From positions 101,180 to 165,179 of the forward strand of contig CAZCNL010000005.1 in NCBI GenBank assembly GCA_964500435.1: 64,000 bases of DNA, given 5' to 3'. The DNA is from an uncultured Chloroherpeton sp. (GTDB taxonomy: Bacteria; Bacteroidota; Ignavibacteria; Kapaibacteriales; UBA2268). Positions 3,469 to 62,860 of this stretch are shown here, piece by piece (within the stretch, counting starts at the first letter, position 1; every line of letters begins with the position of its first letter). Made by a program: the position numbers and the translations under genes. The notes below the pieces were generated by a model, which was not told the origin of the DNA, ran no database searches, and saw only the letters and a list, made by a program, of their open reading frames with translations.

Positions 3469-3509
3469 ATTTCCTTTTTAATCCACCCCGTCATTGCGAG
3501 CGAAGTAAT

Positions 3510-4850: not shown

Positions 4851-4915
4851 ATTTGCACCTTTAATATCATATAGGTCGTATGATTTTTTTATAAATCAAA
4901 CGACCCGTTTAAAAA

Positions 4916-5842: not shown

Positions 5843-5899
5843 TTGTTTTTTCCTTATTTTATTTTTACATTTTTTTTGATAAGATTAATTTTTTTTCGC

Positions 5900-6260: not shown

Positions 6261-6330
6261 TTTATTTACATTTTATATTTTTTCTAATTTAACAAATTCT
6301 TTATATATATAACAAGTGAACAGCAAAAAA

Positions 6331-6462
6331 ATTACATTCAGATGCAAAAAAATTTTTCAACCCGTCATTGCGAGCGAAGCGAAGCAATCCCTTGCTTTCC
6401 TGGGATTGCTTCGTCAACTTTGTCTCCTGGCAATGACGTCATCGTATTTTCCCGTGTTATTT
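6331..6462 (-). repeat. nested-palindrome MITE-like element, copy B
   Basis: attacattcagatgcaaaaaaa...GTCATTGCGAGCGAAGCGAAGCAATCCC...GGGATTGCTTCG...GCAATGAC. The outer arms GTCATTGCGAG/CTCGCAATGAC and the inner arms GAAGCAATCC/GGATTGCTTC are inverted repeats. The same family occurs at 52019-52162, 56629-56760, 60319-60460 and 62307-62440, with a fragment at 3486-3510. Confidence 0.8.
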
Positions 6463-22288: not shown

Positions 22289-23788
22289 ATGATTAAAATT
22301 AAACACATATTCGCTATAATACTAATATTATTAATTGGTTGCTCAATTAATACTTTATATAGTCAAAGTATCCGTATAGTGCGGACTGATGTGGATTCAA
22401 CCCGTTTTGATTTTATAACAGCCGGGTATGTGTTTGGGTTTGATGTCTATGTCGATGGAGTCGATTCATTCAACGGATTGAGCTTCGATTTAGAATGGGA
22501 TGCACCAGATTATGTAAAGTTTTCTCAATGGGAATTAGGGAAATTAGGTCCTAAAGCAAATGCGCAACTTGTGAGCAGAATTGACCAAATTAATAAATTG
22601 GGCATTTTAACTGTCGGTGTTGGAACAGGACAAATATTGGATTCTACAACAAAAGCAATTTCGAAAGTTATTCATTTAGATTTTGTATTGCTACAAAGTG
22701 CTGAGCACGGAGGCAAAGTCAAATTTACATTTATCAAACCTGCAATATCATATTTTACAAGTGGAACACCAAAAATTATAGAATTAAAAGCTTCACCAAT
22801 TGAATTTAAAATTCATAGTTATGTTGATGTATATCCTGGAGATGCCGATAATAGCCATGAAGTTGACCATATGGACTATGTTAACGTAACTCTTTATATG
22901 GGAGTTGGCGGACCTGAAACAAAAAATACAAGAACATTTAAACGCACGTACCCTTCATCTTATTGGATTGCACAACGTTGTCTTGCTTGGGATATTGAGC
23001 CCGCAACTTATGCAGATTGTGATGGAAATGGCGAAATAACAATTAAAGATATGCTTATTGTTAGCTACAATTTAGGTAAAACAACAGTTGGTCCACCAGG
23101 AATAGTCCACAAAGATAAAGAACAAATTCCGTCGAATATATTTCAATCAGCAAACTTTCCACAAAATGCAATTTATATTCCGGTAAATATTTCTTCTAAA
23201 TATGATTTTTATTCAGCAACATTTAATATAAAATTTAAAAAGGACGGAATCGCAAATAAATTAATTGGAGTTAAAAACGGGGATTTATTTCCCGCCGAAA
23301 CAGACTTAATTTATTTTAATAAAAGTGATAATACAGCACAATTTTTTATAACAAATAAGCAAAATACAATTTGTAAAAATAAAAATGGTGTAATCGCCTA
23401 TTTAGTTTTTGCAGAAGATGCCAATATTGGAAATAATGAGATAATTATTGATGATGCCTCGGCAATTTCGGAAAATGGAATAATTTTTAATCTTAATTCA
23501 TTAACAAGTGTTAATTTTGTAAATCTCGATATAAACAACTTAGATAAATCAAAAATGAACTTAAATCTTAAAGACAATTTTGTCGATATAAACCTGCCTG
23601 AAAACCAGTATATTAAGTTAGTTCAAATTCAAGATTTAAATGGAAAAACTATCCGTTCGTTGCAAATTCCAAATAAATTAAATCATCTTGGAATTGATTT
23701 GACCGGATTAGTTCCCACGGTGTATTTCCTTTCGATACAAACCGAAGATGGCAAGTTTTATGTAGAACCACTTTTATATTTCCATTAA
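22289..23788 (+). CDS. secreted protein with T9SS C-terminal sorting domain
   Basis: 499 aa with a signal peptide. The C-terminal ~80 aa (YIKLVQIQDLNGKTIRSL...VYFLSIQTEDGKFY) is Por_Secre_tail-like. Confidence 0.65.
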   Translation: MIKIKHIFAIILILLIGCSINTLYSQSIRIVRTDVDSTRFDFITAGYVFGFDVYVDGVDSFNGLSFDLEWDAPDYVKFSQWELGKLGPKANAQLVSRIDQINKLGILTVGVGTGQILDSTTKAISKVIHLDFVLLQSAEHGGKVKFTFIKPAISYFTSGTPKIIELKASPIEFKIHSYVDVYPGDADNSHEVDHMDYVNVTLYMGVGGPETKNTRTFKRTYPSSYWIAQRCLAWDIEPATYADCDGNGEITIKDMLIVSYNLGKTTVGPPGIVHKDKEQIPSNIFQSANFPQNAIYIPVNISSKYDFYSATFNIKFKKDGIANKLIGVKNGDLFPAETDLIYFNKSDNTAQFFITNKQNTICKNKNGVIAYLVFAEDANIGNNEIIIDDASAISENGIIFNLNSLTSVNFVNLDINNLDKSKMNLNLKDNFVDINLPENQYIKLVQIQDLNGKTIRSLQIPNKLNHLGIDLTGLVPTVYFLSIQTEDGKFYVEPLLYFH

Positions 23789-42419: not shown

Positions 42420-44711
42420 CTAATTTAATAATATTTTGTCTAAGCTAAACCTTAGAGATGTGAAAAATGTGCGGCCCCAACCAATTGGCATTTGTAAAGA
42501 ACCAGTTGAATGAGCACCTTGAACTGTAGCGATGCTTTGCTCTATTTGTTTAACATCGAAAAGATTTTTAAAGCCAAGTTGTAAATCAAGAGCATTATTC
42601 ATTATTTTAAATCCTACGGATAAGTCGAGCATTTGATAGTCGGAAACTTCATATTGGATAATACTTTCATTTTCGCCTATTCCGTAACCAGGTAATTTGC
42701 CGGTGTATTTATAAAAGGCATTAATTTGAGCAATATCTAAAAACGGTAATTTATACACAATGTTTGCTTGAATTTCGGGCGAATATGTAAATTCAGGTGT
42801 TGGGGATGTTTCACTTAAATAATTATAGCGACCAATATATGAAAATCCAAACTGAGCATTTAAATCAGAGGAAATATAATTGGCAGATATATCGCCCCCA
42901 GAAGTTTTATATTTTCCAATGTTTACGTAAGAATATTTGTCATCTTTAATTAAAGCAAATGTAACTAAATTGCTAATGTCGTTATAGTAATATTTGGCGC
43001 TAAAATTCCAAACTGCGGCTTCTTCTTGTATTCGGTAATCTGCAGAGAAATTCCACGAATTTGATGTTTCGGCTTTTAAGTTTTGATTACCATAAATATT
43101 GTGATTTACATCAACAAAGACATAGTATAATTCTCTTAAAGATGGGGCACGAAAACCTTTGGCGTATGATGCACGGAAGTCTAAATTATCAAAAAGTTGA
43201 TATTTTAAATTGATTGATGGTACAATAGGTGCTTCATATTCTGTGTTATAAATAAAGCGGACAGCTGGTTGAATTTGTAGCTCTTCAAACGGACGATAAT
43301 TTAAACTTGTATAAACCGCATAATCACCTTGTGTTTTTTCATTGTTTTCTATACGTTTACCAGTAGCTGTTTCGTAATTGATTTCAGTACCGGCGAGTAA
43401 CCCGATAATTTTATATGGGTCGTCCCAACTATAATTACCTCTGAATAACCATGTATAAAATTTCGTTGTATCTTGGTCCTCGGGATTTCCAGTTATAACT
43501 TGCTTCAATGTAGTTAAATCTTTGAAATATGTATTCTTTTCACGTAAATAATATGAATAATCAAGCATCAAGTTTAAATATTGGTACTTCGAAAGATTAC
43601 CATTTAAAAAAATGGAGTTAGATAATCTATTTGTTTTATATTCATCATCGAAAGCATCTTCGAAATACGGGGGACGAGGTGTCCCACGATTTAAAATATA
43701 CTCATTGAAATAACGTGCGGAATATCGCAATTTAAAATCACCGATATTTGTGCCATATTTCAAATCAGCGAGATATTGGATTTTTGGTTTCCATTGTTTA
43801 TGGCGTGAAGTATCGATAACAGAATAACCTCCGAAGAAATTTCGCCCACCAGTAATTACAAAATTGTGATTATCAAATAAATTAAATTTTAAAGCTCCAT
43901 CGAAATTTACCATTCCGACGCTTTCGTAATATGTATTTCCATCGAATTCTACTCGGTCGCAATTAGACGCATCATTTGTAATGATGTTCAATACACCACC
44001 CAAAGCGTCAGTTCCATAAATTGTAGACATAGGACCTTCGATTATTTCTACTTTTTGGACATTGTTTAAATTTATTTGGGATACATCTATATTCCCTTGC
44101 AAACGTCCAATAACGGGAACTCCATCAATCATTACTTTGACATTTTGACCAGAAATTCCATTTATTGAAATAGAGCTACCTAAAATGTTATCTTGAGAAA
44201 TACGCACATTCATTTGAGTTTGAAGTAAATCTCTCAAATTTGTAGCAGCTTGCGAAATAATTCGTTCTTCAGTGATTACTTGTACAGGATAAACGGAATT
44301 TTGAACAGATTGTGGGCTAAATTGTCCGGTGGTAACAATTTCTTGCAGCATAATTGCCGTCGGCTCTAAATAAACGGTGATATTGTTTTTGGCATCGACT
44401 GTATCGTGAGCGGTTTTATAACCAACGAACCTTACCGTATATGCAATTTTACCGTCAAAAGGAATAGGGACTACACCTTTTTTATTTGTTTTATGAACTT
44501 GAACTTGCGATTTTGTCGAGTTAGATAATGAAACAAAATGTACAGTTGCTGCCGCAAGTGGCTTTTCTGTACTTTTATCGAGTACTGTTAATATGTTATT
44601 ATATGAAAAAAGCGAGCTTGCAGCAAAGAAAAATAAGCAAAAAGTAATAAATTTAATTTTGCTTTGCAGATTATTCAAATTTGTTGAAAAGTGTTTCATT
44701 TGAAAACTCAT
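42420..44711 (-). CDS. TonB-dependent outer-membrane receptor (HmuR-like)
   Basis: 763 aa with a signal peptide, a carboxypeptidase-regulatory-like N-domain, a plug, and a 22-strand barrel ending in the aromatic terminal motif ...FSLDKILLN. The true start is probably an internal Met, since the tracked start overlaps the MTase gene by 41 bp. Confidence 0.85.
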   Translation of the reverse strand: MSFQMKHFSTNLNNLQSKIKFITFCLFFFAASSLFSYNNILTVLDKSTEKPLAAATVHFVSLSNSTKSQVQVHKTNKKGVVPIPFDGKIAYTVRFVGYKTAHDTVDAKNNITVYLEPTAIMLQEIVTTGQFSPQSVQNSVYPVQVITEERIISQAATNLRDLLQTQMNVRISQDNILGSSISINGISGQNVKVMIDGVPVIGRLQGNIDVSQINLNNVQKVEIIEGPMSTIYGTDALGGVLNIITNDASNCDRVEFDGNTYYESVGMVNFDGALKFNLFDNHNFVITGGRNFFGGYSVIDTSRHKQWKPKIQYLADLKYGTNIGDFKLRYSARYFNEYILNRGTPRPPYFEDAFDDEYKTNRLSNSIFLNGNLSKYQYLNLMLDYSYYLREKNTYFKDLTTLKQVITGNPEDQDTTKFYTWLFRGNYSWDDPYKIIGLLAGTEINYETATGKRIENNEKTQGDYAVYTSLNYRPFEELQIQPAVRFIYNTEYEAPIVPSINLKYQLFDNLDFRASYAKGFRAPSLRELYYVFVDVNHNIYGNQNLKAETSNSWNFSADYRIQEEAAVWNFSAKYYYNDISNLVTFALIKDDKYSYVNIGKYKTSGGDISANYISSDLNAQFGFSYIGRYNYLSETSPTPEFTYSPEIQANIVYKLPFLDIAQINAFYKYTGKLPGYGIGENESIIQYEVSDYQMLDLSVGFKIMNNALDLQLGFKNLFDVKQIEQSIATVQGAHSTGSLQMPIGWGRTFFTSLRFSLDKILLN

Positions 44712-45693
44712 TTAATTTATTTTGATTACTAATACTACTTTTATTTGTAGTCCCATCGATTATTTTTAAAATAGACCAATAACCTCTTGAATATTTTTCA
44801 GAAAGAAATTCAATCGATTGTTTTTTTGTTTTACCTTTAGAAATTAATTCGAGATATTCAGCTTTAAAAGTTGCTTTGTCAGATTCAGTTAATGGTTTTC
44901 CAGAATTTATGAATTTAGTTTGTGATGGTTTTCTCAAAGTATGTAATAAAAATCCATCTTGAATTTTTTCCATTTCTTTTATTTGATAATCAAATGCTAT
45001 TTTGCTAATTTCAAAACCAGTTGCTTTACGATTTAGACCTCTTGCAACCTTTGCAGTAGAAAAACTTCCTAAAAAAAAGTCACATACTAAATCACCGGGG
45101 TTGCTTGAATATTGTATCATTTTAATCAGTAATTCCCAAGGTAATTCATTTTTGTTCTTTATTTTATTTGGCTTATATTCCCGATTAATAAACCATACAT
45201 CTTCCCTGTCTTGATAATTTAAAGAACCATTTTTTTCATCTTTTTCGGCATCGCCAAAACGAGCAAAGGTGTTAAAAGTAGGTATATCGCCGAGTTTGAC
45301 ATAATAAAGAATATGGTAATGAGATGATATGTATTTATTTTTTGTGTAAACACCAAAATTATATTTCCAAATTATATGATTCACTTCTTTTAATTTTGTT
45401 GCTCGAAGTGCATTTAAAATATGAATTAAATTTGTATAACCAGAAACAATATATAAACTGCCTCCGGGTTTTAATACTCTTTCAGCTTCTTTAATCCACT
45501 TAAATGAGAACTCCTCATATTCATTTATTGGAATATCTACGTATCCATCAAGAACATTTTTTTCATTTCTATTATAATGCTTATGTAGTTTATCGCCATC
45601 AATACCATAAGGGGGGTCGGTGATAATTAAATCCACCGCCCCATCTTTTAAGTATTTTTGTGCACCTTCTATGCAATCAATATTATAAAACAT
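44671..45693 (-). CDS. site-specific DNA methyltransferase (beta-class N6-adenine or N4-cytosine MTase)
   Basis: 340 aa. The DPPY catalytic motif (DLIITDPPYGI) is near the N-terminus, and the AdoMet motif I (DLVCDFFLGSFSTAKVA) is near the C-terminus, which is the beta-class order. Confidence 0.85.
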   Translation of the reverse strand: MFYNIDCIEGAQKYLKDGAVDLIITDPPYGIDGDKLHKHYNRNEKNVLDGYVDIPINEYEEFSFKWIKEAERVLKPGGSLYIVSGYTNLIHILNALRATKLKEVNHIIWKYNFGVYTKNKYISSHYHILYYVKLGDIPTFNTFARFGDAEKDEKNGSLNYQDREDVWFINREYKPNKIKNKNELPWELLIKMIQYSSNPGDLVCDFFLGSFSTAKVARGLNRKATGFEISKIAFDYQIKEMEKIQDGFLLHTLRKPSQTKFINSGKPLTESDKATFKAEYLELISKGKTKKQSIEFLSEKYSRGYWSILKIIDGTTNKSSISNQNKLNEFSNETLFNKFE

Positions 45694-45701
45694 TTTATGT
45701 T

Positions 45702-46355
45702 TTAATATTTAATTTTGTAATTTTCAAATTTATCTAAGTCTTCTAATTGTAATAGATACTTTGAAGGTCGTGGCTTACTATTAGAATTACGTCCTTGGCT
45801 AAAAAGACCTAATTTACTTATATTTTGTTGATTGATAATTAAAAAAATTAATTCAACAAGCTCAGCTCTGGTTTTCCTGTATCGAGAAAAACTTGTCCTT
45901 TCTATCCTTTTTAGTTCATAGGATGATAATCCACCTTTAAGTTCGGTATGCCATTTTTGGAAGCTTCTGTCGTTATCATTATATTCAACATCACATAATG
46001 CTATTAAAATACCGTGATACTTATTCAACTCTACTGATTTTTGCATACTTTCACTATCGTTTAAAATTAGAAGATGAGAGTTAGATTTAATAGCATGAGA
46101 TTTCAAATCCCAATTGATTGACCTTTTCATATCGAATTTTACATTACCGACTTTATCACCAGGAAATTGGAAATGGTCTTTTAAAGATTTATTAACCAAT
46201 AGTTCAAAGTAAAATCCAAACCATTCCATTTGTTTCCAATTATAATTTGCTTCTTTTAATTCTAAAATTGATGACTTTCCGTCCCATACTTTCGGTAGAT
46301 GTTTTAGTTTTTCACTAATTAATTCAATATCATCAAGATATTTCTTTTTCATCAA
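45702..46355 (-). CDS. hypothetical protein, candidate cognate type II restriction endonuclease
   Basis: 217 aa with no recognisable family. It sits 8 bp upstream of the MTase on the same strand. Confidence 0.35.
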   Translation of the reverse strand: MMKKKYLDDIELISEKLKHLPKVWDGKSSILELKEANYNWKQMEWFGFYFELLVNKSLKDHFQFPGDKVGNVKFDMKRSINWDLKSHAIKSNSHLLILNDSESMQKSVELNKYHGILIALCDVEYNDNDRSFQKWHTELKGGLSSYELKRIERTSFSRYRKTRAELVELIFLIINQQNISKLGLFSQGRNSNSKPRPSKYLLQLEDLDKFENYKIKY

Positions 46356-46367
46356 AGAATTTATAAG

Positions 46368-47654
46368 TTATTGAACAATCAATTTTTGTACTTCTTTATT
46401 TCCATCTATGGAAAATACCACAAAGTATATGCCTGAACTTAATTTCGGATTTATTTGTAATGCATTGAAATTGCTTGCAGGCAAATTCATTTCGTATTGT
46501 TTTTGGCTATTTAAATTGAAAATTTCAATTTTTGGTTGAGAATTATTGCTGTTTGTTGAATAAGTTATATTCATTGCTTCATTAGGTGCAACGATATTTG
46601 GTGTTATAGCGAAATTGCCTGTGATATTACCATTGTTATCTTTTACAGAGTTAGGTTCAACTGGGGTTTTTTCGAAAATTACTTTTCCTGTTGAAGCACC
46701 TTCAAAGCCTGTAAAGACTATTTTCCAAATTAAACCATCTGGGGACATAACGAAATAGCATAAATCTGAAGGTATTTCCCATTGAAAATCTTGATTTAAA
46801 TGTTTCCAAAGATGACCGATTGTAGAAATATTGCTTGTGAAGCTATCATTCGTTGGTGTAGTAACAGTGGCTGGATCTTGACCCGCAACTTTTACTGCAC
46901 TCCATTCATAATTAATCAAAATGCCATTAACATTATAAGGGGTTTTTCCACCCTGTCCATCGTCGACCATTGCCATATATTTGCCAAATAACAAGCTCCA
47001 TGCGGATGGTTCTAAATCGAGCTTTTCTCCTGGTGTTGTTGCCAAAGAATAATAAGCAAATGATTTTGTGGAATAGTTCTTTTTATTGAATTCAACTGTT
47101 TTTGAGTTATTTCCGTTCAAATCGGCATACGAAAAATATAAAATTCCGCCAATTAAATCTTCAATTCGCATTTGATAGTAATTACCAGCTAAATCTTTGA
47201 AAATAAATAATTTTTTTCCACTAATTGCATGAGTTGACATATTATATTCGCCCCAGCCGAAATCGCCGTTATCTTCGAATCCATTTTTCCCCATATTGAA
47301 TGCACCGACAACCCAGCTTTCGTCTGAATCGAGCCATTCAATGAATTTGGTTTGGTCAGTATTCAATCCTGTCGTATCGATTACATTGCCGAAATCATCA
47401 ACGGTTTTGCCGACAACTTCCCACAAACGGCAACCTGCACCTGAATTTATTCTAATTGTTGCGTTTGTTCCTTTGGTCAATATGCTTAAATCCCAAGCAT
47501 TTAATGCTGCTGATGTTGTTGCATCATCTTCAAGATTATACCAAACACATTTGGAATAACTTTTACCATTTGCAACTTCAACTGTTGTTGTTTCTGCGAT
47601 GCTATTGGAAAATACCAAAGCAAATACGAAAAATATAGTTATTGCTGTTTTCAT
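46368..47654 (-). CDS. HmuY-like domain protein with T9SS C-terminal sorting domain
   Basis: 428 aa with a signal peptide. The N-terminal region VWYNLEDDATTSAALNAWDLSIL...NSGAG parallels the HmuY-like lipoprotein at 41385-42416. The C-terminal CTD reads SGIYFVVFSIDGNKEVQKLIVQ. Confidence 0.5.
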   Translation of the reverse strand: MKTAITIFFVFALVFSNSIAETTTVEVANGKSYSKCVWYNLEDDATTSAALNAWDLSILTKGTNATIRINSGAGCRLWEVVGKTVDDFGNVIDTTGLNTDQTKFIEWLDSDESWVVGAFNMGKNGFEDNGDFGWGEYNMSTHAISGKKLFIFKDLAGNYYQMRIEDLIGGILYFSYADLNGNNSKTVEFNKKNYSTKSFAYYSLATTPGEKLDLEPSAWSLLFGKYMAMVDDGQGGKTPYNVNGILINYEWSAVKVAGQDPATVTTPTNDSFTSNISTIGHLWKHLNQDFQWEIPSDLCYFVMSPDGLIWKIVFTGFEGASTGKVIFEKTPVEPNSVKDNNGNITGNFAITPNIVAPNEAMNITYSTNSNNSQPKIEIFNLNSQKQYEMNLPASNFNALQINPKLSSGIYFVVFSIDGNKEVQKLIVQ

Positions 47655-47786
47655 ATTATTTTTAACTCCTTTAAAATGAATATATTATATTGTTTTGTTT
47701 ATTAATAAAAAATTTTATTTACAAAATTAATGTATTAAACGTAAATTAACATAATTTTATTATTTAGCGAAATATTTCTAATTTTT

Positions 47787-48368
47787 TTAATAACATTCTT
47801 CTTCTATAATTTCACACAAAATATGACCAATCATTATATGAGTTTCTTGAATTCTTGCTGTATTATTCGAAGGAGAAATAAAGGAATAATCGCACATTTC
47901 AGCGATTTTTCCGCCATTTCCACCTAAAAATCCGATTACTGTGAGCTCTTTTGACTTTGCTGCTTCGATTGCACGGATTACATTTTCAGAATTACCACTT
48001 GTAGAAATTGCAATTAAAGCATCGCCAGTTTGAGCGAGTGCTTCGATTTGCCTGCTAAAAATATTATTGAAACCATAATCATTACCGCCAGCTGTTAAAA
48101 TTGAAGTATCCACCGTTAAAGCAATAGCTGGAATTGCGGGACGTTCGTATGAACTTCGTAAACGGACTACTAACTCTGCGGCTAAATGCTGGCTATCAGC
48201 AGCACTTCCTCCGTTTCCGCAAAATAATATTTTCTTCCCACTTTGAACAACTTCTGCAAGTTTTTTGCCTATGATTTCTATGTTCTTTATGGTATTTTTA
48301 TCTAAAATTGCTTGTTTAGTGGCAATACTTTCTTTAATCGACGATTCAATTTTGTGCTTATAATCCAT
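47787..48368 (-). CDS. gmhA: D-sedoheptulose-7-phosphate isomerase (SIS domain)
   Basis: 193 aa. ILFCGNGGSAADSQHLAAELVVR is the GmhA signature. Confidence 0.85.
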   Translation of the reverse strand: MDYKHKIESSIKESIATKQAILDKNTIKNIEIIGKKLAEVVQSGKKILFCGNGGSAADSQHLAAELVVRLRSSYERPAIPAIALTVDTSILTAGGNDYGFNNIFSRQIEALAQTGDALIAISTSGNSENVIRAIEAAKSKELTVIGFLGGNGGKIAEMCDYSFISPSNNTARIQETHIMIGHILCEIIEEECY

Positions 48369-48427
48369 ATTTTTTGGTTGATATTTTAATTTTAAATTAA
48401 ATAATATAAAGAAGAATTAATTTAATT

Positions 48428-49837
48428 TTGATTTTAAAAATGAACAATTTAGAGTTATATTTTCCAATTTTAAGTCCCTCGCTTTTGGCATATTATGTTT
48501 CAAAAGGAGAATGGAAATATTCAAGGCATTTACAATTAATCGAATCAAGCATCTTTGATATGCTTCGAGGTAATAAAAAGCACTTAATTGTAAATATGCC
48601 ACCAAGGCACGGCAAAAGTGAATTTATTTCGAAATATTTTCCATTTTGGTATCTCATAAATAATCCAAATAAAAGAATTATTTTAGTTTCGTACCAAGCA
48701 GGAATTGCTGAAGGTTGGAGCCGAAAAATTCGTGATTTGTTTGTAAATTATGGCGAGAAATTCGGCGTACGTTTAAATCCTCGACATAACAAATCGAATA
48801 GCTTTGGTTTTATGGAATATTCAGGTAGTCTGTATTCAGTCGGTATTGGAGGAGCGTTGACTGGTAAAGGTGCTGATTTATTGATTATTGATGACCCAGT
48901 GAAAAATGATGAAGAAGCGAATTCTTTGTTATTTCGTGATAAAATTTGGGAATGGTTCAATGCTACGGCAATGACAAGATTAGAACCGGATGGTCATTGT
49001 ATCGTTGTAATGACAAGATGGCACGAAGATGATTTAACAGGAAGAATTATAAATCATTCCTGCATCGATTTTAACTTAAATTGGAACTTGATTTCTTTGC
49101 CTGCAATTGCTCAAAAGAATGATTTAATTGGACGTCAAGAAGGTGAAGCTCTGTGGAAAGAACGATTTCCTATTAATAATTTGTTAAATTTAAAATCGCA
49201 AATTGGTTCTTATTGGTTTTCTTCACTTTACCAGCAAGAACCTGTGCCTTCGGGAAATAGCATTTTCAAGCGTGAAAATTTTAAATATTTTCAGGAATTT
49301 GATACTTATTATAACTTAGAAATTTCGCCAAGTTTAAATAAAAAGGTTTTGAAAGAAAATTTGACAATTATGGCGACTTCCGATTTGGCGATTTCAACAA
49401 ACGAAACATCGGATTATACAGTTATCCTGATTTTTGGCAAGAACAACGATGGAGATATATTAATTTTGGATATAATCCGAGAAAGATTTGAATTTTCGTC
49501 ACATATTTCAATGTTGAATGCAATATTTGCAAAATATCAACCAATTTTAATTGGCATCGAAAATGTGCAATTCCAGCAAGCTTTAATCCAAACTGCAATA
49601 AAATCCGGGTTGCCAATTAAATCTCTTCGAGCAGATAAAGATAAAATTTCCCGAGCTTTGCCTATTGCGTCTTTAATTGAAAACGGAAAAGTTTATTTTA
49701 AGAAAAATTCTGCCTACCTTGAAAGTTTTGAAAAAGAATTACTTAATTTTCCGAAAGGGAAAAATGACGACCAAGTCGATGCATTTGCTTATATTTCTCA
49801 GATGGTTACAATGAATAGTAAGCTTTTGCCAATTTAA
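48428..49837 (+). CDS. phage terminase large subunit (ATPase plus RNaseH-like nuclease), orphan
   Basis: 469 aa. The Walker A-like motif is NMPPRHGKSEF, the Walker B is GADLLIIDDP, and the coupling motif is VVMTRWHEDD. The C-terminal nuclease has an acidic triad (ATSDLAIS ... ENVQFQ ... NDDQVDAFAY). Confidence 0.8.
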   Translation: MILKMNNLELYFPILSPSLLAYYVSKGEWKYSRHLQLIESSIFDMLRGNKKHLIVNMPPRHGKSEFISKYFPFWYLINNPNKRIILVSYQAGIAEGWSRKIRDLFVNYGEKFGVRLNPRHNKSNSFGFMEYSGSLYSVGIGGALTGKGADLLIIDDPVKNDEEANSLLFRDKIWEWFNATAMTRLEPDGHCIVVMTRWHEDDLTGRIINHSCIDFNLNWNLISLPAIAQKNDLIGRQEGEALWKERFPINNLLNLKSQIGSYWFSSLYQQEPVPSGNSIFKRENFKYFQEFDTYYNLEISPSLNKKVLKENLTIMATSDLAISTNETSDYTVILIFGKNNDGDILILDIIRERFEFSSHISMLNAIFAKYQPILIGIENVQFQQALIQTAIKSGLPIKSLRADKDKISRALPIASLIENGKVYFKKNSAYLESFEKELLNFPKGKNDDQVDAFAYISQMVTMNSKLLPI

Positions 49838-52018: not shown

Positions 52019-52162
52019 CTACATTCAGAATAACGAGAAGAAGACGGTTGTATCATTGCCAGTAAACGAAAGTCGACGAAGCAGTCCCAAGAATGCAAGA
52101 GATTGCTTCGCTTCCGCTCGCAATGACTGGTTGAAAAATTTTTTTGTATCTGAATGTAACTT
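52019..52162 (+). repeat. nested-palindrome MITE-like element, copy D, with terminal inverted repeats
   Basis: The flanks acattcagaat ... attctgaatgt-like (tacattcagaa / atctgaatgta) are inverted. The internal sequence is cgacgaagcagtcc...gagattgcttcgcttccgctcgcaatgac. It sits 120 bp upstream of the 52283 gene. Confidence 0.75.
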
Positions 52163-52282
52163 TTTGCTTGTTTAATAGTCTTTGTTTATTATAATAGTGA
52201 AAAAATATAAAATATTTTGTTATTTAAATAAAAATTGTTATATTATAATTACTATTTTTACAAACTTTTTTAAGGTGTTAAT

Positions 52283-54874
52283 ATGAAAGAATTTTTACAG
52301 AAAATTGAACTTGAAGACAAAAAGGGCTTCAATGGTTCAATTGTTCAATGGTTCAATGGATTACGATTTATAATCGTATTTATTGTAATTATATTTATAT
52401 TTCCGAATAATTCTAATGCATTATCAGAAGGGAAGCTATCTTTCCTAAACTACTCATCGTTAACAGTAGTTGCAGATAGTATATTAAATGTTGGCGATAC
52501 TATCAAATTGCAACTAAATGTAACATCTCTTCAGCAAGATTCAGCAACAATATTGTGTCATGTTAGTAGGGGGTTATATATCTTGAACAATGATTCTGAA
52601 TTTTATAATATAAGAACTTATACAGATACAAATTCATTACAAAATATAGAAATTAGGTTAATAATTGATTCTATTCAAAATTGTTTTTTTGAATTGGTAA
52701 CAGTTTCTGATTTTAATATCGGATTATATGGAAATACAATATCATATCGAAGAGAATTGTTCATCAATGGTGGGAACGAATTAGTTTTAAACAATACTTA
52801 TGATAACAATGATGCAATTATAAATACAATTCAATATTCCCAACCAATTTGTACACTTCAAAATAACCACCATATAAAAATAAAAGGCAAGGTATCATTT
52901 CTTGATTGGAATGAACCAAAAACTTTTTATGCGAATGGTAATACATTAGAACATTTTCCGAGAAGGAAATCCCCGAGAACCACAGCATGGATTTTTTTCA
53001 GAACAAACGACCAACAAAATAAATTTTCTCATCCCATAAAATTTAATCAAATTACTGGAAAACCTATAAAAGGAATTCACTATGTAGAATGCATTGAGGG
53101 AACAAATTTTAATGAAGAGAGTGGTGAATTTATTTTCGAATTCGATTACAATCCACTATCTTTGTATTGTCAGGCTTATGAAAATATGACAGTAGAAATA
53201 TATATTGCAAAGGAAAATGAAGCAACATTATTAAATTCCGGGAGCGATCACATAATAGTATCAAATTACCCAAACCCTTTTAATACAACCAACGAATTAA
53301 AACTTTACCCTACAAAATATTTTAGCATTACTTATCCAAATGGTGTGCCACAAAATATTGATATTTCTTATATTACAACACCAGAACTTAATATTGAATT
53401 ACCTTTTGACGAGGGCGCCATGTTCAGATATATGACTATTTCAAGAGAATTTCTTAAAGATCTATATAACAATAACAACCTTGAATTTTCTGAAAATCGA
53501 AAGTTAAAACAGTGCAATTCAAATTTGTTATGGAGGGCACATACAGGCAGTGATCCGGGCGGTCAATATTCTTTTAATTCAAAGAACATTGATATTTATA
53601 AATATTATAATGGAAATGATCAAAATTATACAAATTGCAAAGTAATCGCTCATGAATATGGTCATTATTTTGATCATATATTAACAAATTGTGGTCATAA
53701 TGAAATAGAAGGATTTGCAATGTTTTTTTCTTATGCAGCTAATGTATGGATGAGAAATTCTTTTGGTGACTTTTTTGGTATAGAAGATGATTGTGAGATT
53801 GGTCCATTTTGCAAGTTTATGGTAAATGATGTTGTCCTTACTAAGAATGGAGTATCATATAATAGATACGGTAATATCACTAAATTGGGTGTACCTGATA
53901 TAAATTCTTGCAGATTTGCTTGTTATTTATGGAATATTTATGACTCTAAAAGTGACCAGCCATTTTCACCAATTAATGATTGGGACGGTATGGCAAATGA
54001 CGATATCGAAGATTTACGAGAAGATCTAATGGACTTTTGGATTGAATTACCATTAGATGGAGTTAATTTTTCAGGTTTTAATGATTCTTTGAAAAACAAA
54101 TATTCTGCTAATGTAAGACTTCAAAATTCTTTACAAGCAATATATGATTTCATGGATTTTCCGTCAGGTAGTTTTAATCCATCAATTGAAAATATTTCGG
54201 CAAGAATGAGAAGCCCAAATATACAATCAATGAGTTATACTACTAACGTAATAAATAATCAAATCTATGTTAAGTTCTTATGGGGTGATGATATATCTTA
54301 TAAAAATATACCATTTGAATCTATTTACAAAGATACTAAATATGTATATCCATTTCAGAATACTCCTCAATCTATAAGACTTTCTCACAATTATACTAAT
54401 TCGGATGAATGGCAAGTTTATGAAACAATTGAAAATTATATCAATGTTAAAGAAAGTGAGTGGTATTTAACTAATAATGATATTCCATACGACAAATTTA
54501 AATTATCGACTTTGAATACTAATTCAGAAGAGTCTTACCAACCATTAATAGTTAATTTTGGGATTCCAATGGCAAAAATTGCTTATAATGATTTGGAAGT
54601 TTCAGACATTTCTCTTAACTTAACAACCTATAAAATTGAAAACTTATTAACTATCAGTTCATTAGATAAGATTGATATTAAAATGATTAGGTTTTATAAT
54701 ATTGAAGGTAAAATTGTAAATGAAATTGCAATAAATGATGGTTTTTCATTGTATCATTCAATTGATTTAAGCAATACAGTTCATAATATCAGTTCACAAT
54801 CATTATTTATGCAAATAATATTTACAGATAGAAATAATAAGTTACATTTCATTAATTATAAATTAATAAAATAA
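52283..54874 (+). CDS. large secreted protein with HEXXH zinc-metalloprotease-like motif and T9SS C-terminal sorting domain
   Basis: 863 aa with an N-terminal TM/signal region. The internal motif is AHEYGHYFDH. The C-terminal ~90 aa (IRFYNIEGKIVNEI...FMQIIF) is CTD-like. Confidence 0.55.
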   Translation: MKEFLQKIELEDKKGFNGSIVQWFNGLRFIIVFIVIIFIFPNNSNALSEGKLSFLNYSSLTVVADSILNVGDTIKLQLNVTSLQQDSATILCHVSRGLYILNNDSEFYNIRTYTDTNSLQNIEIRLIIDSIQNCFFELVTVSDFNIGLYGNTISYRRELFINGGNELVLNNTYDNNDAIINTIQYSQPICTLQNNHHIKIKGKVSFLDWNEPKTFYANGNTLEHFPRRKSPRTTAWIFFRTNDQQNKFSHPIKFNQITGKPIKGIHYVECIEGTNFNEESGEFIFEFDYNPLSLYCQAYENMTVEIYIAKENEATLLNSGSDHIIVSNYPNPFNTTNELKLYPTKYFSITYPNGVPQNIDISYITTPELNIELPFDEGAMFRYMTISREFLKDLYNNNNLEFSENRKLKQCNSNLLWRAHTGSDPGGQYSFNSKNIDIYKYYNGNDQNYTNCKVIAHEYGHYFDHILTNCGHNEIEGFAMFFSYAANVWMRNSFGDFFGIEDDCEIGPFCKFMVNDVVLTKNGVSYNRYGNITKLGVPDINSCRFACYLWNIYDSKSDQPFSPINDWDGMANDDIEDLREDLMDFWIELPLDGVNFSGFNDSLKNKYSANVRLQNSLQAIYDFMDFPSGSFNPSIENISARMRSPNIQSMSYTTNVINNQIYVKFLWGDDISYKNIPFESIYKDTKYVYPFQNTPQSIRLSHNYTNSDEWQVYETIENYINVKESEWYLTNNDIPYDKFKLSTLNTNSEESYQPLIVNFGIPMAKIAYNDLEVSDISLNLTTYKIENLLTISSLDKIDIKMIRFYNIEGKIVNEIAINDGFSLYHSIDLSNTVHNISSQSLFMQIIFTDRNNKLHFINYKLIK

Positions 54875-54885
54875 AGGGGGCTATA

Positions 54886-56499
54886 ATGAAAAAAGTATAT
54901 ATTATTTTATTAACCTTGGTTTTCTTCCAATTTAATAAATTGTTTTCTGAAAATTGGGAACCTTTTCCATTGAATCAAACTTCATACTATAAAATAACAA
55001 AAGCAAAATATCTTTGGATTGATAATATTTTTGAAAGCAAAGATTTGATCGACGCTATAACAATAATAAAATTCGATTCAGTAACAAATCAAAATTCAAA
55101 TAATAAAAAATATTACTCACAAATAATAAAAAATAACGATAAATGTCTTTTAAGTAAACAAGATACATTATGGGATAAATATGATCACTTACAGAATCTA
55201 CAACCAAAGTCGTATATTTTTGTTGACGATACTTTAGTATTCCTAATTAAGGATGAGCATAATATTTCAAATACTTGCTTAAAGTTGCCATTAAATTTAG
55301 ATAATAGTAAATCCTATTTCCAAATAAATTATGATAGCAATTTCAATTCTACTATGAAAATTGAAACTAAATTAATCTCTAAAACAGAAAAATCAATTTT
55401 TGGTATCAAAGATTCAATAATTACTTTTGAGATACAAAGAAGACGAGTGCCAGAAAAAGAAGATGGTACTTTTATAATTGAGTTAAGCAAAACTTTTGGG
55501 CTAATAAAATATTTCCCTTTAGACATACTTTTTAATTGGTCGTTATCTGCTCAAATTCAAGAGATAGAATTAGCTTCTGTCGATAAAAATCAAGAGCATT
55601 ATGGCGAGGTTTATGATTTTAAATATCGCAATCGTAACTTATTTGAAAAGCCCAGAAATATTAAAATATATAGGGATGTCTGGGGTGTTAATTCCTGGGA
55701 TTATGTATTTATACGAGATTCAATAATTAGTGTCGACAATTCAGAGGACTTTGTTTTTGTAGTATATAATCGCCAAACATTATCGTCTAATCAAGGAGTA
55801 AAACCGAATATTAATATAAATTATACATATACTTACTTAAAAAAAGATAGTATAATTTATGAAGGATTTAATGCTATGGTAGATGCCCTCCGAAGAGGCG
55901 AAACTTTTATTCCAAGTGCACATTTATTTGATAAAGTTCCTAACAATGAAACTAAGCAAATTGACGATTCATTAGAAGTTATTGCTACTCCATTATTATT
56001 TAAATTTGTTGATAAATGTGGTCACAAAGATCTACAGATATTTTATGTTTTTGATGCAACATTAGATAGAGAAAATTGCTTTCTTCAAAATCGATTTTTT
56101 GTAAACAAGATATTAGATTATAAAATGGATTTGTGGTGGGAGATCAATAACTATGGACCGTGGCGAACTGATGACCTCTATATTGGTTTCAAAGATGGCG
56201 ATTGTGAATGGGGCGATTTAAGTTGGCCACCCAAGGAAGTATCAGTCTCGCAAGAGCAGCAATATCATTATCAACTCTTCCCCAACCCAGTTCGTTCAAC
56301 AACACGGGTGAATTTGCAACAAGAGGGGCAAGTGGCGATTACGGCAGTGGATTTGCTTGGACACTCGTTCCCGCTTTGGTCGGGCTATGCAAGCACCGGC
56401 ACTCTGGAACTTGACGTCAGCACCTTGCCGACAGGCTCCTACACCTTGCTCATCGATTACGGCACAAAACGAGAAGCAGTACGGATGATGAAGGAGTAG
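54886..56499 (+). CDS. T9SS C-terminal-domain secreted protein, paralog 1
   Basis: 537 aa with a signal peptide. The CTD is LFPNPVRSTTRVNLQQEGQVAITAVDLLGHSFPLWSG...TLLIDYGTKREAVRMMKE. It is about 80% identical to 60579-62177 and only 11 bp downstream of the previous gene, so probably co-transcribed. Confidence 0.7.
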   Translation: MKKVYIILLTLVFFQFNKLFSENWEPFPLNQTSYYKITKAKYLWIDNIFESKDLIDAITIIKFDSVTNQNSNNKKYYSQIIKNNDKCLLSKQDTLWDKYDHLQNLQPKSYIFVDDTLVFLIKDEHNISNTCLKLPLNLDNSKSYFQINYDSNFNSTMKIETKLISKTEKSIFGIKDSIITFEIQRRRVPEKEDGTFIIELSKTFGLIKYFPLDILFNWSLSAQIQEIELASVDKNQEHYGEVYDFKYRNRNLFEKPRNIKIYRDVWGVNSWDYVFIRDSIISVDNSEDFVFVVYNRQTLSSNQGVKPNININYTYTYLKKDSIIYEGFNAMVDALRRGETFIPSAHLFDKVPNNETKQIDDSLEVIATPLLFKFVDKCGHKDLQIFYVFDATLDRENCFLQNRFFVNKILDYKMDLWWEINNYGPWRTDDLYIGFKDGDCEWGDLSWPPKEVSVSQEQQYHYQLFPNPVRSTTRVNLQQEGQVAITAVDLLGHSFPLWSGYASTGTLELDVSTLPTGSYTLLIDYGTKREAVRMMKE

Positions 56500-56507
56500 G
56501 GCTATTT

Positions 56508-56563
56508 AACCTTCAGAAGGTTCTTTTCACCAGATGTCCTACACCTCCAAGGTGTAGGACATC
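56508..56563 (+). terminator. tandem hairpins after paralog 1 (terminator-like)
   Basis: AACCTTCaGAAGGTT followed by a T-rich tract, then the perfect 13-bp stem GATGTCCTACACCtccaaGGTGTAGGACATC. The same pair occurs at 62186-62241. Confidence 0.6.
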
Positions 56564-56628
56564 TTAGTTTCTACTTCCCCTTCCTTAAAGCGGTGTCACG
56601 CAGTGCCGGGGCAGGCATTATTATAAAA

Positions 56629-56760
56629 TCCCGTTTTCAAGGGAATGACAAATTTGCTGGTCTTTGCGAGGAGTTTAAGCGAAGAAGCAATCTGAGAAAG
56701 GTATTGCTTCGCTTACGCTCGCAATGAAGAAAATAAATTTCTTGCATTTGAATGTAATTT
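56629..56760 (+). repeat. nested-palindrome MITE-like element, copy E
   Basis: tcccgttttcaagggaatgacaaatttgc...ttgcgaggag...gaagcaatctgagaaaggtattgcttcgcttacgctcgcaatga...ttgcatttgaatgtaattttttgcc. Confidence 0.8.
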
Positions 56761-56799
56761 TTTGCCAAAATTTTTGTCTTTATTTTAAGAAAAAAATAA

Positions 56800-57180
56800 T
56801 TTGTTAAATTAGAGAAAGAGAAAGCTGCAAAACTAAAAAAATAAATGGTTGTAATTAATAAAAATATTGAGAAGGCGGGAAATACGGAAAATGGCATAGG
56901 ATGGGCTTTATGGCTTTATGGCTTTATGTGGATGCCTCAAGAATATTTTTATTGCATTGAAACTGCGATTTATTCAAATTTTCCAAAGAAAGAAAAATTA
57001 CTTTGTTCAAATAAATTTTGCCGAAAAAAATTATTTATTTACAACTGCGAGTGGAAATTCATTGCGTTTAGCGGGCTGATGCTGTTTTCCTGAAAGATTT
57101 TTGGATAATAGCAGAAGTCTGCAAAAGCCGCTCGCAGTTCCACTGGGCAGAGCGAAAGCTTGGAACTGTTCGAATAATGC
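56800..57180 (+). repeat. conserved ~350-bp leader element, copy 2 (3x octamer repeat)
   Basis: Colinear with 62470-62860 at roughly 85-90% identity, and with the reverse complement of 5900-6260. GCTTTATG occurs 3 times at 56898-56921. The tail contains the hairpin CAGTTCCA...GCGAAAGC...TGGAACTG. Confidence 0.8.
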
Positions 57181-60309: not shown

Positions 60310-60318
60310 GTGCTTGAT

Positions 60319-60460
60319 TCCCGTTTTCACGGGAATGACAAATTTGCAAGTCATTGCGAGGAGACGAAGTCGACGAAGCAATCTCAGGAAGGGATTGCTT
60401 CGCTACGCTCGCAATGACATAAAAAAATTTTTTTTGCATCAAAATGTAATTTTTTGCCAA
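60319..60460 (+). repeat. nested-palindrome MITE-like element, copy F
   Basis: ATTCCCGttttcaCGGGAATgacaaatttgcaaGTCATTGCGAGgagacgaagtcgacGAAGCAATCtcaggaagGGATTGCTTCgctacgCTCGCAATGACat...ttgcatcaaaatgtaattttttgcc. It is upstream of paralog 2. Confidence 0.85.
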
Positions 60461-60578
60461 ATTTTTTGTCTTTATTTTTAAAAAATAATTTATTAAATTA
60501 GAAGTGTTAGAAGTAAGAAAGTAAATAATATTCTTCAAATACTGTTGAAATCTCTTTTATAAAATAAAAGGTCTTACA

Positions 60579-62177
60579 ATGAAAAAAGTATATATTATTT
60601 TATTAACCTTGATTTTCTTTGAATTTAATAATTTGTTTTCTGAAAATTGGGAACCCTTTCCATTGAATCAAACCTCTTATTATAAGATAACAAAAACAAA
60701 ATTACCTTATACTACAAATTTTGAAAGTAAAGATTTAATAGATGCAATAACAATAATTAAATTCGATTCAGTATCAAATCAAAATTCAAATAATAAAAAA
60801 TATTTCTCACAAATATTAAAAGTTAACGATAGTTGCATTATCAGTAAAAAAGATTCTTTATGGAATGATGATTTCCCAAATTTACAGCCAGAGGCATATC
60901 TTTTTCTTGGTGATACATTAGTATTCTTAATTAAGGAAGAGCATAATATTTCAAATACTTGCTTAAAGTTGCCATTAAATTTAGATCAAAGTGACTCCTA
61001 TTTCCAAATTAATTATGATAGCAATTACAATTCTACTATGAAGATAGAAACTAAGTTAATTTCTAAGACAGAAAAATCAGTTTTTGGTATTATAGATTCA
61101 GTAATTACTTTTGAAATTCAAAGAAACCGATTGCCTACAAAAGATGATGGTGTTTTTTTAATTGAGTTAAGTAAAAAATTTGGGCTAATAAAATTTTTCC
61201 CCTTAGATATTCTTGCTTATGGGGGGCTATTTGATCAAATTCAGCAATTAGAATTGGTATCGGTAGATGAAAACAAAGAACATTATGGCGAGGTTTATAA
61301 TTTCAAATATCGTAACCGTAACTTATTTGAAAAGCCCGGAAATATTAAAATATATGAGAATATATGGGGTGAACCTTGGGATTTGGTGTTTATTAGAGAT
61401 TCTATAATTAGTGTTGACAATTCAGATGATAGAGTTTATGTGGAATATAATCGACAAACAATGTCTACAAATCAAGGTATTAAACCGGACATAAATCAAA
61501 ATTATAAATATTTTTATTTTAAAAAAGATAGTTTAATTCATTATGGATTTAATGCAATGGTTGATGCCCTTCGAAGAGGTGAGACATTTATTCCGAGTAC
61601 AAATTTATTTGACAAAATTCCAAATGAGAAACCAACGCAAACACCCTTGGAAATAATTGCAACACCATTGTTATTCAAATTTATTGAAAAATGTGGTCAA
61701 AAAGATTTACAGATTTTTTATATTTACCAAGCTGGCTTGGATAGAGGAAATTGCACTCTTCCAATGAAATTTTTTTGGTACCGAATATTGGATTATAAAA
61801 TGGATTTGTGGTGGGAGTGCAATAACGAAAACATTTTTCCAAGCTTAGGGGACCACTATGTTGGTATTAAAGATGGCGATTGTGAATGGGGGGATTTATC
61901 GTGGCCTCCAAAGGGACTTTCTGTTTTTGAAGGACAGCAATATAATTCTTATCTCTCCCCTAACCCAGCTCGTTCAATTACACGATTAAATTTACAGCAA
62001 GAGGGAGATATATCTATAACGGCAGTGGATTTGCTTGGTCGCTCGTATCCCCTTTGGTCGGGCTACGCAAGCAGCGGCGATATGGAACTTGACGTAAGTA
62101 CCTTACCGACAGGCTCATACACCTTGCTAATTGATTACGGCACAAAGCGAGAAGCAGTACGGATGATGAAGGAGTAG
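60579..62177 (+). CDS. T9SS C-terminal-domain secreted protein, paralog 2
   Basis: 532 aa, colinear with 54886-56499 over its full length, with the same CTD. Confidence 0.7.
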   Translation: MKKVYIILLTLIFFEFNNLFSENWEPFPLNQTSYYKITKTKLPYTTNFESKDLIDAITIIKFDSVSNQNSNNKKYFSQILKVNDSCIISKKDSLWNDDFPNLQPEAYLFLGDTLVFLIKEEHNISNTCLKLPLNLDQSDSYFQINYDSNYNSTMKIETKLISKTEKSVFGIIDSVITFEIQRNRLPTKDDGVFLIELSKKFGLIKFFPLDILAYGGLFDQIQQLELVSVDENKEHYGEVYNFKYRNRNLFEKPGNIKIYENIWGEPWDLVFIRDSIISVDNSDDRVYVEYNRQTMSTNQGIKPDINQNYKYFYFKKDSLIHYGFNAMVDALRRGETFIPSTNLFDKIPNEKPTQTPLEIIATPLLFKFIEKCGQKDLQIFYIYQAGLDRGNCTLPMKFFWYRILDYKMDLWWECNNENIFPSLGDHYVGIKDGDCEWGDLSWPPKGLSVFEGQQYNSYLSPNPARSITRLNLQQEGDISITAVDLLGRSYPLWSGYASSGDMELDVSTLPTGSYTLLIDYGTKREAVRMMKE

Positions 62178-62185
62178 GGCTATTT

Positions 62186-62241
62186 AACCTTCAGAAGGTT
62201 TTTTTCACCAGATGTCCTACACCTCCAAGGTGTAGGACATC
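62186..62241 (+). terminator. tandem hairpins after paralog 2 (terminator-like)
   Basis: AACCTTCaGAAGGTTttttttc, then GATGTCCTACACCtccaaGGTGTAGGACATC. Confidence 0.65.
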
Positions 62242-62306
62242 TTAATTTCTACTTCCACTTCCTTGAAGGGGTGGCACGTAGTGACGGGGAGGTATAATTA
62301 TAAAAT

Positions 62307-62440
62307 CCCGTTTTCAAGGGAATTAAAAATTTGCAAGTCATTGCGAGGAGCGTGAGCGACGAAGCAATCTCAGGAAGGGATTGCTTCGCTACGCTCGCAA
62401 TGACGAAAAATTTTTTGCATTAGAATGTAATTTTTTGCCA
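62307..62440 (+). repeat. nested-palindrome MITE-like element, copy G
   Basis: tcccgttttcaagggaat...gtcattgcgaggagcgtgagcgacgaagcaatctcaggaagggattgcttcgctacgctcgcaatgacg...ttgcattagaatgtaattttttgcc. Confidence 0.85.
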
Positions 62441-62469
62441 AATTTTTTGTCTTTGTTTTTAAAATAATT

Positions 62470-62860
62470 TGTTAAATTATAGGAAGAGAAAGCTGCAAAA
62501 CAAGAAAATATATGGTTGTAATTAATAAAAATAAAGAAAAGGCGGGAAGTTCGGAAAAGGGCATAGAATGGGCTTTATGGCTTTATGTAGACGCCTCAAG
62601 AATATTTATATTGTATTGAAACTGCGATTTATTCAAATTTTCCAAAGAAAGAAAAATTACTTTGTTCAAATAAATTTTGCCGAAAAAAATTATTTATTTA
62701 CAACTGCGAGTGGAAATTCATTGCGTTTAGCGGGCTGATGCTATTTTGTCGAAACAATATAATTTGTTTTGGGAATTAGCAAAAGTCCGCTGAAATCGCT
62801 CGCAGTTCTATTGGGCAGGGCGAAAGTTTGGAACTGTGCCAGTAATGCCTGAAAAAAATC
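62470..62860 (+). repeat. conserved ~350-bp leader element, copy 3 (2x octamer repeat)
   Basis: Colinear with copy 2. GCTTTATG occurs twice at 62571-62586. The short ORF that is open in copies 1 and 2 is interrupted here by a TGA, which argues that the element is non-coding. Confidence 0.8.

Follow-up and report, generated by a model that had tools for sequence, protein, structure and literature searches.

Between which genes does a short, GC-rich hairpin repeat lie, and what has put it there? In the window, the stretch of 64,000 nucleotides analysed here, a sequence-only reading had described a MITE-like element with nested palindromes ahead of secreted-protein genes and had proposed it as the operator or promoter module of a dedicated regulon for T9SS substrates. 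In our analysis the most probable explanation is a different one, namely that the element consists of Ssn-type single-stranded DNA (ssDNA) hairpin sites, which have been co-duplicated with T9SS cargo-gene cassettes and now bracket them. The position ahead of secreted-protein genes would then mostly result from local gene duplication and not from a dedicated secretion regulon.

The element and its copies in the window

Sequence searches of the window confirmed five composite copies (A-E) and one fragment, all of them intergenic (Table 1). Each copy has a core of 68-78 nt, formed by two inverted GTCATTGCGAG-x-GAAGCAATC units, which is followed by a tail with the consensus TTG[C/T]AT..(G/A)AATGTAA(T/C)TTTTTGC and by an AT-rich block. 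The cores have a GC content of 46-56%, compared to 31.5% for the window, and the region of copy D has a predicted fold of -52.9 kcal/mol (z = -6.3), in agreement with the description of a relatively GC-rich, hairpin-forming, multi-copy intergenic element. The 9-mer CATTGCGAG, with at most one mismatch, has 26 matches in the window where 8.4 are expected, a number that no shuffled sequence reached; together with the fold of copy D this excludes chance. The individual units are 26-34 nt long and are imperfect palindromes, which are capable of forming hairpins according to fold predictions and to the covariation of their inner stems. A search for the inner palindrome with a fixed loop of 12 nt found nothing, since the real loops comprise 9-16 nt. 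Copy C and the left arm of copy B contain degenerate units, and a short unit is located at 3489-3509. The element is real, but the proposed length of ~140 bp falls short: similarity between the copies continues beyond the tail for ~60-100 nt of AT-rich sequence, up to near AATTTGTTAAATTAG, so that the whole repeated module spans ~200-230 nt.

Table 1. Positions of hairpin units and of the copies of the element in the window.
Feature	Position	Strand or orientation	Basis
Intact GTCATTGCGAG...GAAGCAATC units	6364, 60350, 62337	+	pattern search of the window
Intact GTCATTGCGAG...GAAGCAATC units	6437 (GTCATTGCCAG), 52127, 60418, 62404	-	pattern search of the window
Single unit, short or truncated (GTCATTGCGAGCGAAGTAATC), directly at the stop codon of the 446-aa CTD gene	3489-3510	+	
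Copy A: NTS-like remnant 6440-6462, long unit 6404-6437 (-, GTCATTGCCAG), short unit 6364-6389 (+), tail 6324-6350	6324-6462	functional orientation -	
Copy B: reversed tail (TACATTCAGA) 52024-52033, degenerate left unit 52052-52086, intact right unit 52101-52127 (-), tail 52144-52170	52024-52170	+	
Copy C: degenerate NTS-like hairpin, degenerate long unit 56660-56692 (GTCTTTGCGAG), degenerate short unit 56702-56728 (-), tail	56626-56768	+	
Copy D: NTS/dRS3-like hairpin unit GTCATTCCCGTGAAAACGGGAATC	60316-60339	-	exact palindrome, match to the NTS consensus
Copy D: long unit GTCATTGCGAG-GAGACGAAGTCGAC-GAAGCAATC	60350-60383	+	
Copy D: short unit GTCATTGCGAG-CGTAGC-GAAGCAATC, with 60350-60383 a long/short inverted doublet	60393-60418	-	
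Copy D: tail (TTGCATCAAAATGTAATTTTTTGCC) and co-duplicated AT-rich promoter-like block	60434-60520	+	family D5
Copy E: degenerate NTS-like hairpin, long unit 62337-62369 (+), short unit 62379-62404 (-), tail 62415-62441	62303-62441	+	

Judged by its sequence, the element is a composite of three parts: a minus-strand NTS-like hairpin, an inverted doublet of a long and a short unit, and a lineage-specific AT-rich tail with a promoter-like block. The left hairpin, described earlier as an ATTCCCG/CGGGAAT component of the whole family, is exact in copy D only, where it forms an ATTCCC-N8-GGGAAT palindrome of the dRS3 form at 60317-60336 (ATTCCCGTTTTCACGGGAAT), the sole exact copy in the window; it is degenerate in copies C and E, reduced to a remnant in copy A and absent from copy B. 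On the minus strand, the hairpin of copy D reads TGTCATTCCCGTGAAAACGGGAATCAAG and matches the NTS consensus CGTCATTCCCGCGMAVGCGGGAATCYRG at 24 of 28 positions, with two of the four mismatches forming one compensatory change from a C-G to a T-A pair. The same hairpin gave a weak, chance-level match to the Rfam family FtrB at permissive E-values. In copy B the hairpin is degraded (z = -0.64 for the DNA fold); the tail, repeated there in reverse, takes the place of the left hairpin and creates the inverted repeat TACATTCAGA/TCTGAATGTA. This terminal inverted repeat had been placed in the fourth copy (D); it belongs to the copy at 52019.

The window encodes SprA, which identifies its source as a T9SS organism, and CTD signals were found in the 308-, 446-, 537-, 783- and 532-aa proteins adjoining the copies. 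The copies punctuate the cargo cluster at 52-64 kb in the order B-genes-C-genes-D-gene-E, and the operon at 3510-6253 is bracketed by units (fragment, 446 aa, 308 aa, leader, copy A). The statement that all copies lie upstream of secreted-protein units and are oriented toward them holds for five out of five copies, including the one at 6331, copy A, which is in reverse orientation; the fragment, however, adjoins the 3' end of a CTD gene. These five cases share much of their history. Copies C and E are contained in one 2.3-kb segmental duplication, with 54863-57180 matching 60556-62848, and are 90% identical over ~200 nt. Also included in this duplication are the paralogs of 537 and 532 aa together with their terminators, a small ORF or leader and the first part of a Cys-rich gene. 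Copies A (reversed), C and E head paralogous modules of a leader and a Cys-rich/CTD gene, and copy D is 79-83% identical to C and E over ~200 nt that include both sides of the core. Copies A and B constitute a second subgroup with 73% identity. Hence, the association with secreted-protein genes is inflated and perhaps rests on two or three independent events.

A difference between relatives was found at the fragment. On contig L260 of a related strain (12780-12919, corresponding to 3440-3560 of the window), a full, slightly degenerate doublet occupies this site, followed by unrelated DNA that lacks the 446-aa CTD gene, and synteny with the window ends at the unit. Judging from this comparison, the difference is a structural polymorphism with its breakpoint at the unit. 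A metagenome contig, L121, carries an ortholog of copy A that is near-identical by eye. No exact matches to the 532-aa and 213-aa proteins of the window were on record. Several public metagenome or Logan contigs of this organism (L121, L243 and L256-L258) stop within the doublet or the leader. Assembly from short reads does not get past these repeats, and more copies are therefore to be expected in the genome.

A leader block of ~125 nt (ATATTTTTATTGTATTGAAACTGCGA...AACTGCGAGTGGAAATTCATTGCG) was observed at 56950-57077, 62609-62736 and 6020-6140 (-) and at 265-390 of L121, where it separates the hairpin element from the Cys-rich or CTD genes. It is ~95-100% identical among the three paralogous modules, compared to only 78-89% for the coding DNA around it. 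It has no Rfam match and is a candidate for a cis-regulatory leader. An 8-nt tandem repeat, GGCTTTAT (56905-56930, 62570-62587 and 6170-6200 (-)), is present three times in the modules of copies A and C and twice in that of copy E. Its differing copy number puts the small upstream ORF into another frame (82 aa vs ~35 aa), so that conservation of the downstream block does not extend to the protein level; the repeat might allow slipped-strand switching. Beside the cargo-gene cluster, the region 44671-49837 encodes an N6_N4_Mtase DNA methylase and a terminase large subunit and looks like a prophage remnant, and an HNH gene is located just left of the window (L259, 7248-7559).

Relation of the hairpin units to Ssn sites

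The core consists of two units of the type Y-GTC-ATTGC-GAG-(mini-hairpin)-CGAA-GCAAT-C-Y, inverted relative to each other, in which the mini-hairpin has the form G..C, usually GCGNAGC, with CGNAGC as the most frequent variable inner segment. All intact units of the window begin with GTC-ATT, placing a GTC directly 5' of the palindrome, and the units end in ...GCAAT-C, with a C directly 3' of it (for example AATCTCAGG and AATCCCAGG). The pattern GTCATTGCGAG-N4-30-GAAGCAATC was found at 120 or more loci in viral contigs and at 120 or more in species-representative genome contigs, covering ~10 phyla. Among the matches listed are Alpha- and Gammaproteobacteria, Chloroflexi, Desulfobacterota, Patescibacteria (CPR), Bacteroidota, Cyanobacteria/Melainabacteria, Zixibacteria, Planctomycetota, Bacillota (Firmicutes), Helicobacter, Latescibacterota and phage contigs. 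With 20 specified bases, a few tens of matches are expected by chance in the whole collection of 596 Gb; the presence of several units per locus and of 51 inverted doublets that match exactly at all of their 40 specified bases, among 352 units from loci of other genomes takes the distribution beyond chance.

The same 352 units show a bias at positions that the search pattern left unconstrained. Position -1 is C in 52% and T in 43% of the units, position +1 is C in 53% and T in 43%, position +2 is A or C (A 40%) and position +3 is enriched in G (41%). This mirrors the frame CGTC...ATCYRG of the NTS repeat (PMC11893778). The inner stems covary, with at least three anchored pairs in 70 of 352 units and in 27 of 352 after shuffling, and longer inner inserts form covarying stems such as TCCCGA..TCGGGA or GCTCC..GGAGC. 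The commonest doublet elsewhere combines inner segments of 12-13 nt and 6 nt, and the doublets of the window fit this long/short form (13-14 and 6 nt in copies D and E, 6 and 14 nt in copy A). A pattern of core plus tail had no matches in genome contigs and in metagenomes retrieved the orthologous contig L121 only, which indicates that the tail is lineage-specific.

In the public records checked (BLAST, plasmids and phages) the unit portion alone found matches, and none of them carried an annotation of GTCATTGCGAG...GAAGCAATC; no Rfam family reached the gathering threshold for the element. Searching the literature with 9-mers of the element returned primers only, whereas 11-mers led to a study of single-domain GIY-YIG nucleases (Ssn), whose genes are flanked by the NTS repeat CGTCATTCCCGCGMAVGCGGGAATCYRG, which contains dRS3, and by related SRM hairpins (Chenal et al. 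2025, PMC11893778). Ssn of Neisseria and three other tested homologs bind the hairpin as ssDNA only, binding requires the C just 3' of the palindrome, and cleavage occurs a few nt 5' of the unit and depends on the GTC 5' of the palindrome (PMC11893778). In Neisseria, the NTS repeats cluster around surface-protein genes (PMC11893778).

In phage-like contigs (L003, L004, L006, L015, L029, L036, L090 and L092), single GTCATTGCGAG units often lie directly 5' of a ribosome binding site and start codon, in either orientation. Such contigs hold up to six units, and some of them (L046 and L020) contain short tandem arrays.

A link between the GTCATTGCGAG class and this type of nuclease was found in other genomes. 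At five of five loci examined (L187, L250, L251-253, L254 and L255), units of this class lie on both sides of a 95-100-aa single-domain Pfam GIY-YIG gene; L254 and L255 were picked blind to their flanks, while the other three were found or chosen knowing the unit. In the planctomycetotal locus L187, the gene between the units encodes a 96-aa protein, whose homologs form a distinct clade with the motif REKQIKGGSRQKKIDLIN and have the same class of unit in the flanks of the other four loci. In L254 the outer stem carries a compensatory variant, with GTTGC/GCAAC replacing ATTGC/GCAAT. The L187 protein is 53% identical to P0190 from the control locus L244, whose flanking hairpins conform to the published SRM pattern. 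The control loci L244, L245 and L246 and the Chryseobacterium locus L192 have other stems in the same GTC...C frame, with the upstream hairpin direct and the downstream one inverted. The published pattern, HGTCWYN(0-2)YYVSBRHN(0-5)WNVSBRGN(0-2)RNCYNB, works on the positive controls L244-246 and L248-249 and misses the hairpins of L192. It has no match in the window (0.02 expected), where it misses the NTS-like hairpin by one position, and it misses every GTCATTGCGAG unit examined, so that this class of unit extends the SRM family. Taken together, the hairpin units appear to belong to a superfamily of Ssn-related hairpin repeats that includes NTS and SRM.

Most copies of the unit are not linked to a nuclease gene, as expected of dispersed repeats: an HMM built from GIY-YIG matches found no such gene next to the unit at 238 of 240 listed loci, and regex screens and the HMM found none in the 64-kb window. 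The regex screens nearly missed the L187 protein, which starts with CAYIM, and the association was recovered by the HMM. A DNA pattern of a unit followed by [FY]VY[IM] codons had no matches in viral contigs, but it had little power, as the NTS positive control gave only two; a locus search with the Chryseobacterium GIY-YIG protein returned one unrelated viral locus.

In L187, the unit-GIY-YIG-unit cassette (4880-5540) lies between the two copies of a perfect direct duplication, 113 nt long, of the 5' end of pheT, which may be a recent insertion footprint or an assembly artefact. Database ORFs of Ssn-like proteins (P0125, P0140, P0152, P0183, P0334, P0337 and P0308) are often over-extended into the flanking hairpins, giving the peptides VIPAQAGIQ, SFPRRRES and RFRGHD for the NTS type and VIASD, SLPAYRSNL and DCF..AMT for the GTCATTGC type. 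Such peptides provide a signature for typing the flanking motif from protein databases.

Other explanations for the element

The nested palindrome could instead be bound as double-stranded DNA by a dimeric regulator, with the tail supplying promoter elements for a regulon of T9SS substrates. The placement and orientation of the five copies speak for this, as does the conserved AT-rich block that follows the hairpin in every copy and could hold a promoter. Against it, the same palindrome, including its long/short asymmetry, occurs in phage contigs and in phyla without T9SS, which make up most of those with the unit. Within the window, two CTD (Por_Secre_tail) genes, at 22289-23788 and 46368-47654, are not preceded by a copy, the fragment is found at the 3' end of a gene, and copies A, C, E and also D are explained by duplication. 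In a manual reading of the aligned modules the spacing of the candidate TTG-to-TTTG boxes varies, and the Bacteroidetes promoter TTG-N17-23-TAnnTTTG has no exact match in any module, compared to 18 matches elsewhere in the window; a sigma-70 promoter scan showed no enrichment. While a promoter in the co-duplicated AT-rich block is possible, a dedicated operator is very unlikely, and the proposal of the sequence-only reading was not borne out in this respect. It may also be asked whether the element acts as RNA, i.e. as a transcribed, REP-like hairpin in 3' UTRs or between cistrons that stabilises the upstream mRNA, attenuates read-through or serves as a processing site. The predicted RNA fold is very stable on both strands, many units of viral contigs lie directly 5' of a ribosome binding site, and 7-10 nt separate the start of copy D from the stop codon at the end of the 783-aa gene, an interval that holds no other terminator. 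However, separate terminators precede copies C and E (56532-56564 and 62210-62242), the terminator scan does not flag the hairpins, and no Rfam family matches. The conserved GTC/C frame and the GCGNAGC mini-hairpin, a motif that is unusually stable in DNA, point to recognition as ssDNA. SsnA does not bind RNA (PMC11893778). As the main function an RNA-level role is quite unlikely, although it is compatible with the ssDNA hairpin sites and the two are not exclusive. Among specific RNA structures, an intrinsic terminator, with a GC-rich stem directly followed by a T-run, was rejected on the basis of the scan; a hammerhead ribozyme, considered for the GUC and GA...GAA, was rejected as the CUGAUGA core is absent.

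The remaining explanation is an ordinary, non-autonomous MITE, or a REP/REPIN that depends for its movement on a transposase, for example a Y1 enzyme of the RAYT type or a member of the IS110 family. It shares with the ssDNA hairpin sites a multi-copy, intergenic repeat. REPs carry a 5' tetranucleotide with the consensus GT[AG]G, and the doublet architecture resembles REPINs, but the tetranucleotide of the unit is GTCA. The term MITE-like applies loosely, in that copy B has 10-bp terminal inverted repeats; around this copy no target-site duplication, proposed earlier as a check, is visible. The 113-nt direct duplication around the L187 cassette suggests mobility, but at the loci examined the gene between the units is a GIY-YIG nuclease and never a transposase, and near-identical units across ~10 phyla would be atypical of such elements. 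We therefore regard this explanation as highly improbable.

Proposed role and comparison with known repeat systems

For the favoured explanation, Ssn-type ssDNA hairpin sites, the following scenario can be drawn. When DNA is single-stranded, on entry by conjugation or transformation, in replication or in repair, the units would form hairpins, and a cognate Ssn encoded elsewhere in the genome would cut them. Both strands carry a unit in a doublet, so that a cut at its outer edge could be made in either of them, and the doublets may act as recombination-modulating or recombination-prone boundaries around cargo cassettes. Presumably a doublet first came to lie beside the 5' region of an ancestral cassette of cargo genes; segmental duplication then copied the two together, with the result that units now bracket the cargo operons. 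The synteny break at the unit in L260 supports such a boundary role. Several observations speak against this explanation: no GIY-YIG gene was found in the window, the published SRM pattern matches neither the GTCATTGCGAG unit nor the NTS-like hairpin, 238 of 240 listed loci have no such gene beside the unit, three of the five nuclease loci were found or chosen knowing the unit, and the same orientation of all five local copies is not predicted by the Ssn model except via duplication.

A broader generalization, that doublets of the Ssn type mark the edges of exchangeable surface- or secreted-protein cassettes in Bacteroidota as NTS repeats do in Neisseria, is drawn by analogy and we regard it as unlikely. 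If true, a hairpin together with a GIY-YIG ssDNA nuclease would constitute a general, cross-phylum control of recombination, duplication and loss of surface-protein genes, with the strain-level synteny break and the co-duplication of doublets and T9SS cassettes as footprints of the role at cassette edges. In a bolder variant, doublet and tail are a candidate for a portable 5' regulatory cassette that has been co-opted from the repeat.

The analysis removes the T9SS-specific operator as a tempting false lead and identifies the widespread hairpin repeat GTCATTGCGAG...GAAGCAATC as a flanking motif of a distinct Ssn-like GIY-YIG clade. As the Ssn/SRM hairpin family is already known, the GTCATTGCGAG class is, as far as its sequence tells, a modest extension; since the published pattern misses this class, the Ssn/SRM system may be underestimated. 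It also nominates a candidate enzyme/site pair for ssDNA tools. The units around secreted-protein genes and the strain breakpoint at a unit provide a Bacteroidota counterpart to the observation in Neisseria.

The closest known system are the SRM/NTS repeats. These have in common with the GTCATTGCGAG unit the (C/T)GTC, the hairpin and the C-Y-R-G frame; they are multi-copy and intergenic, flank genes of ~95-aa single-domain GIY-YIG proteins, in direct orientation upstream and in inverted orientation downstream, and cluster around or bracket genes of surface or secreted proteins. They differ in the architecture of the hairpin, which in the GTCATTGCGAG unit is made up of an outer stem of 5 bp, an internal GA/GAA loop and an inner mini-hairpin that varies, whereas NTS has one continuous CCCGCG stem. 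In addition, the GTCATTGCGAG unit often occurs in long/short inverted doublets and is linked to the REKQIKGGSRQKKIDLIN clade, and the units of the window are fused to an AT-rich tail and promoter-like block with no ssn gene within the window. For SRM/NTS, cleavage has been demonstrated biochemically; for the GTCATTGCGAG class it is predicted from the sequence. The dRS3 repeats and the neisserial intergenic mosaic elements resemble the element in their exact palindrome, in repeats at the boundaries of variable surface-protein genes and in a breakpoint at the unit. Here, however, there is one exact dRS3 copy, the host is of the Bacteroidota type with SprA/T9SS, and no associated phage integrase was seen.

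REP/BIME and REPIN-RAYT systems likewise consist of short imperfect palindromes with a conserved 5' tag, which occur as singletons and inverted doublets in intergenic regions and flank the gene of a cognate enzyme, and REPs are recognised as ssDNA hairpins. In contrast to REPIN-RAYT, the enzyme here is a GIY-YIG nuclease and not an HUH Y1 (IS200/IS605-like) transposase, and the tag is GTC(A) instead of GTAG; moreover, REPs are species-specific, whereas the sequence of the GTCATTGCGAG unit is conserved across phyla. MITEs such as the Correia elements are similar in being ~140 bp long, intergenic, multi-copy and able to adjoin promoters. The element differs from them by the lack of consistent terminal inverted repeats and of a target-site duplication, by local copies that are explained by segmental duplication, and by a core that is made of nuclease-associated hairpin units.
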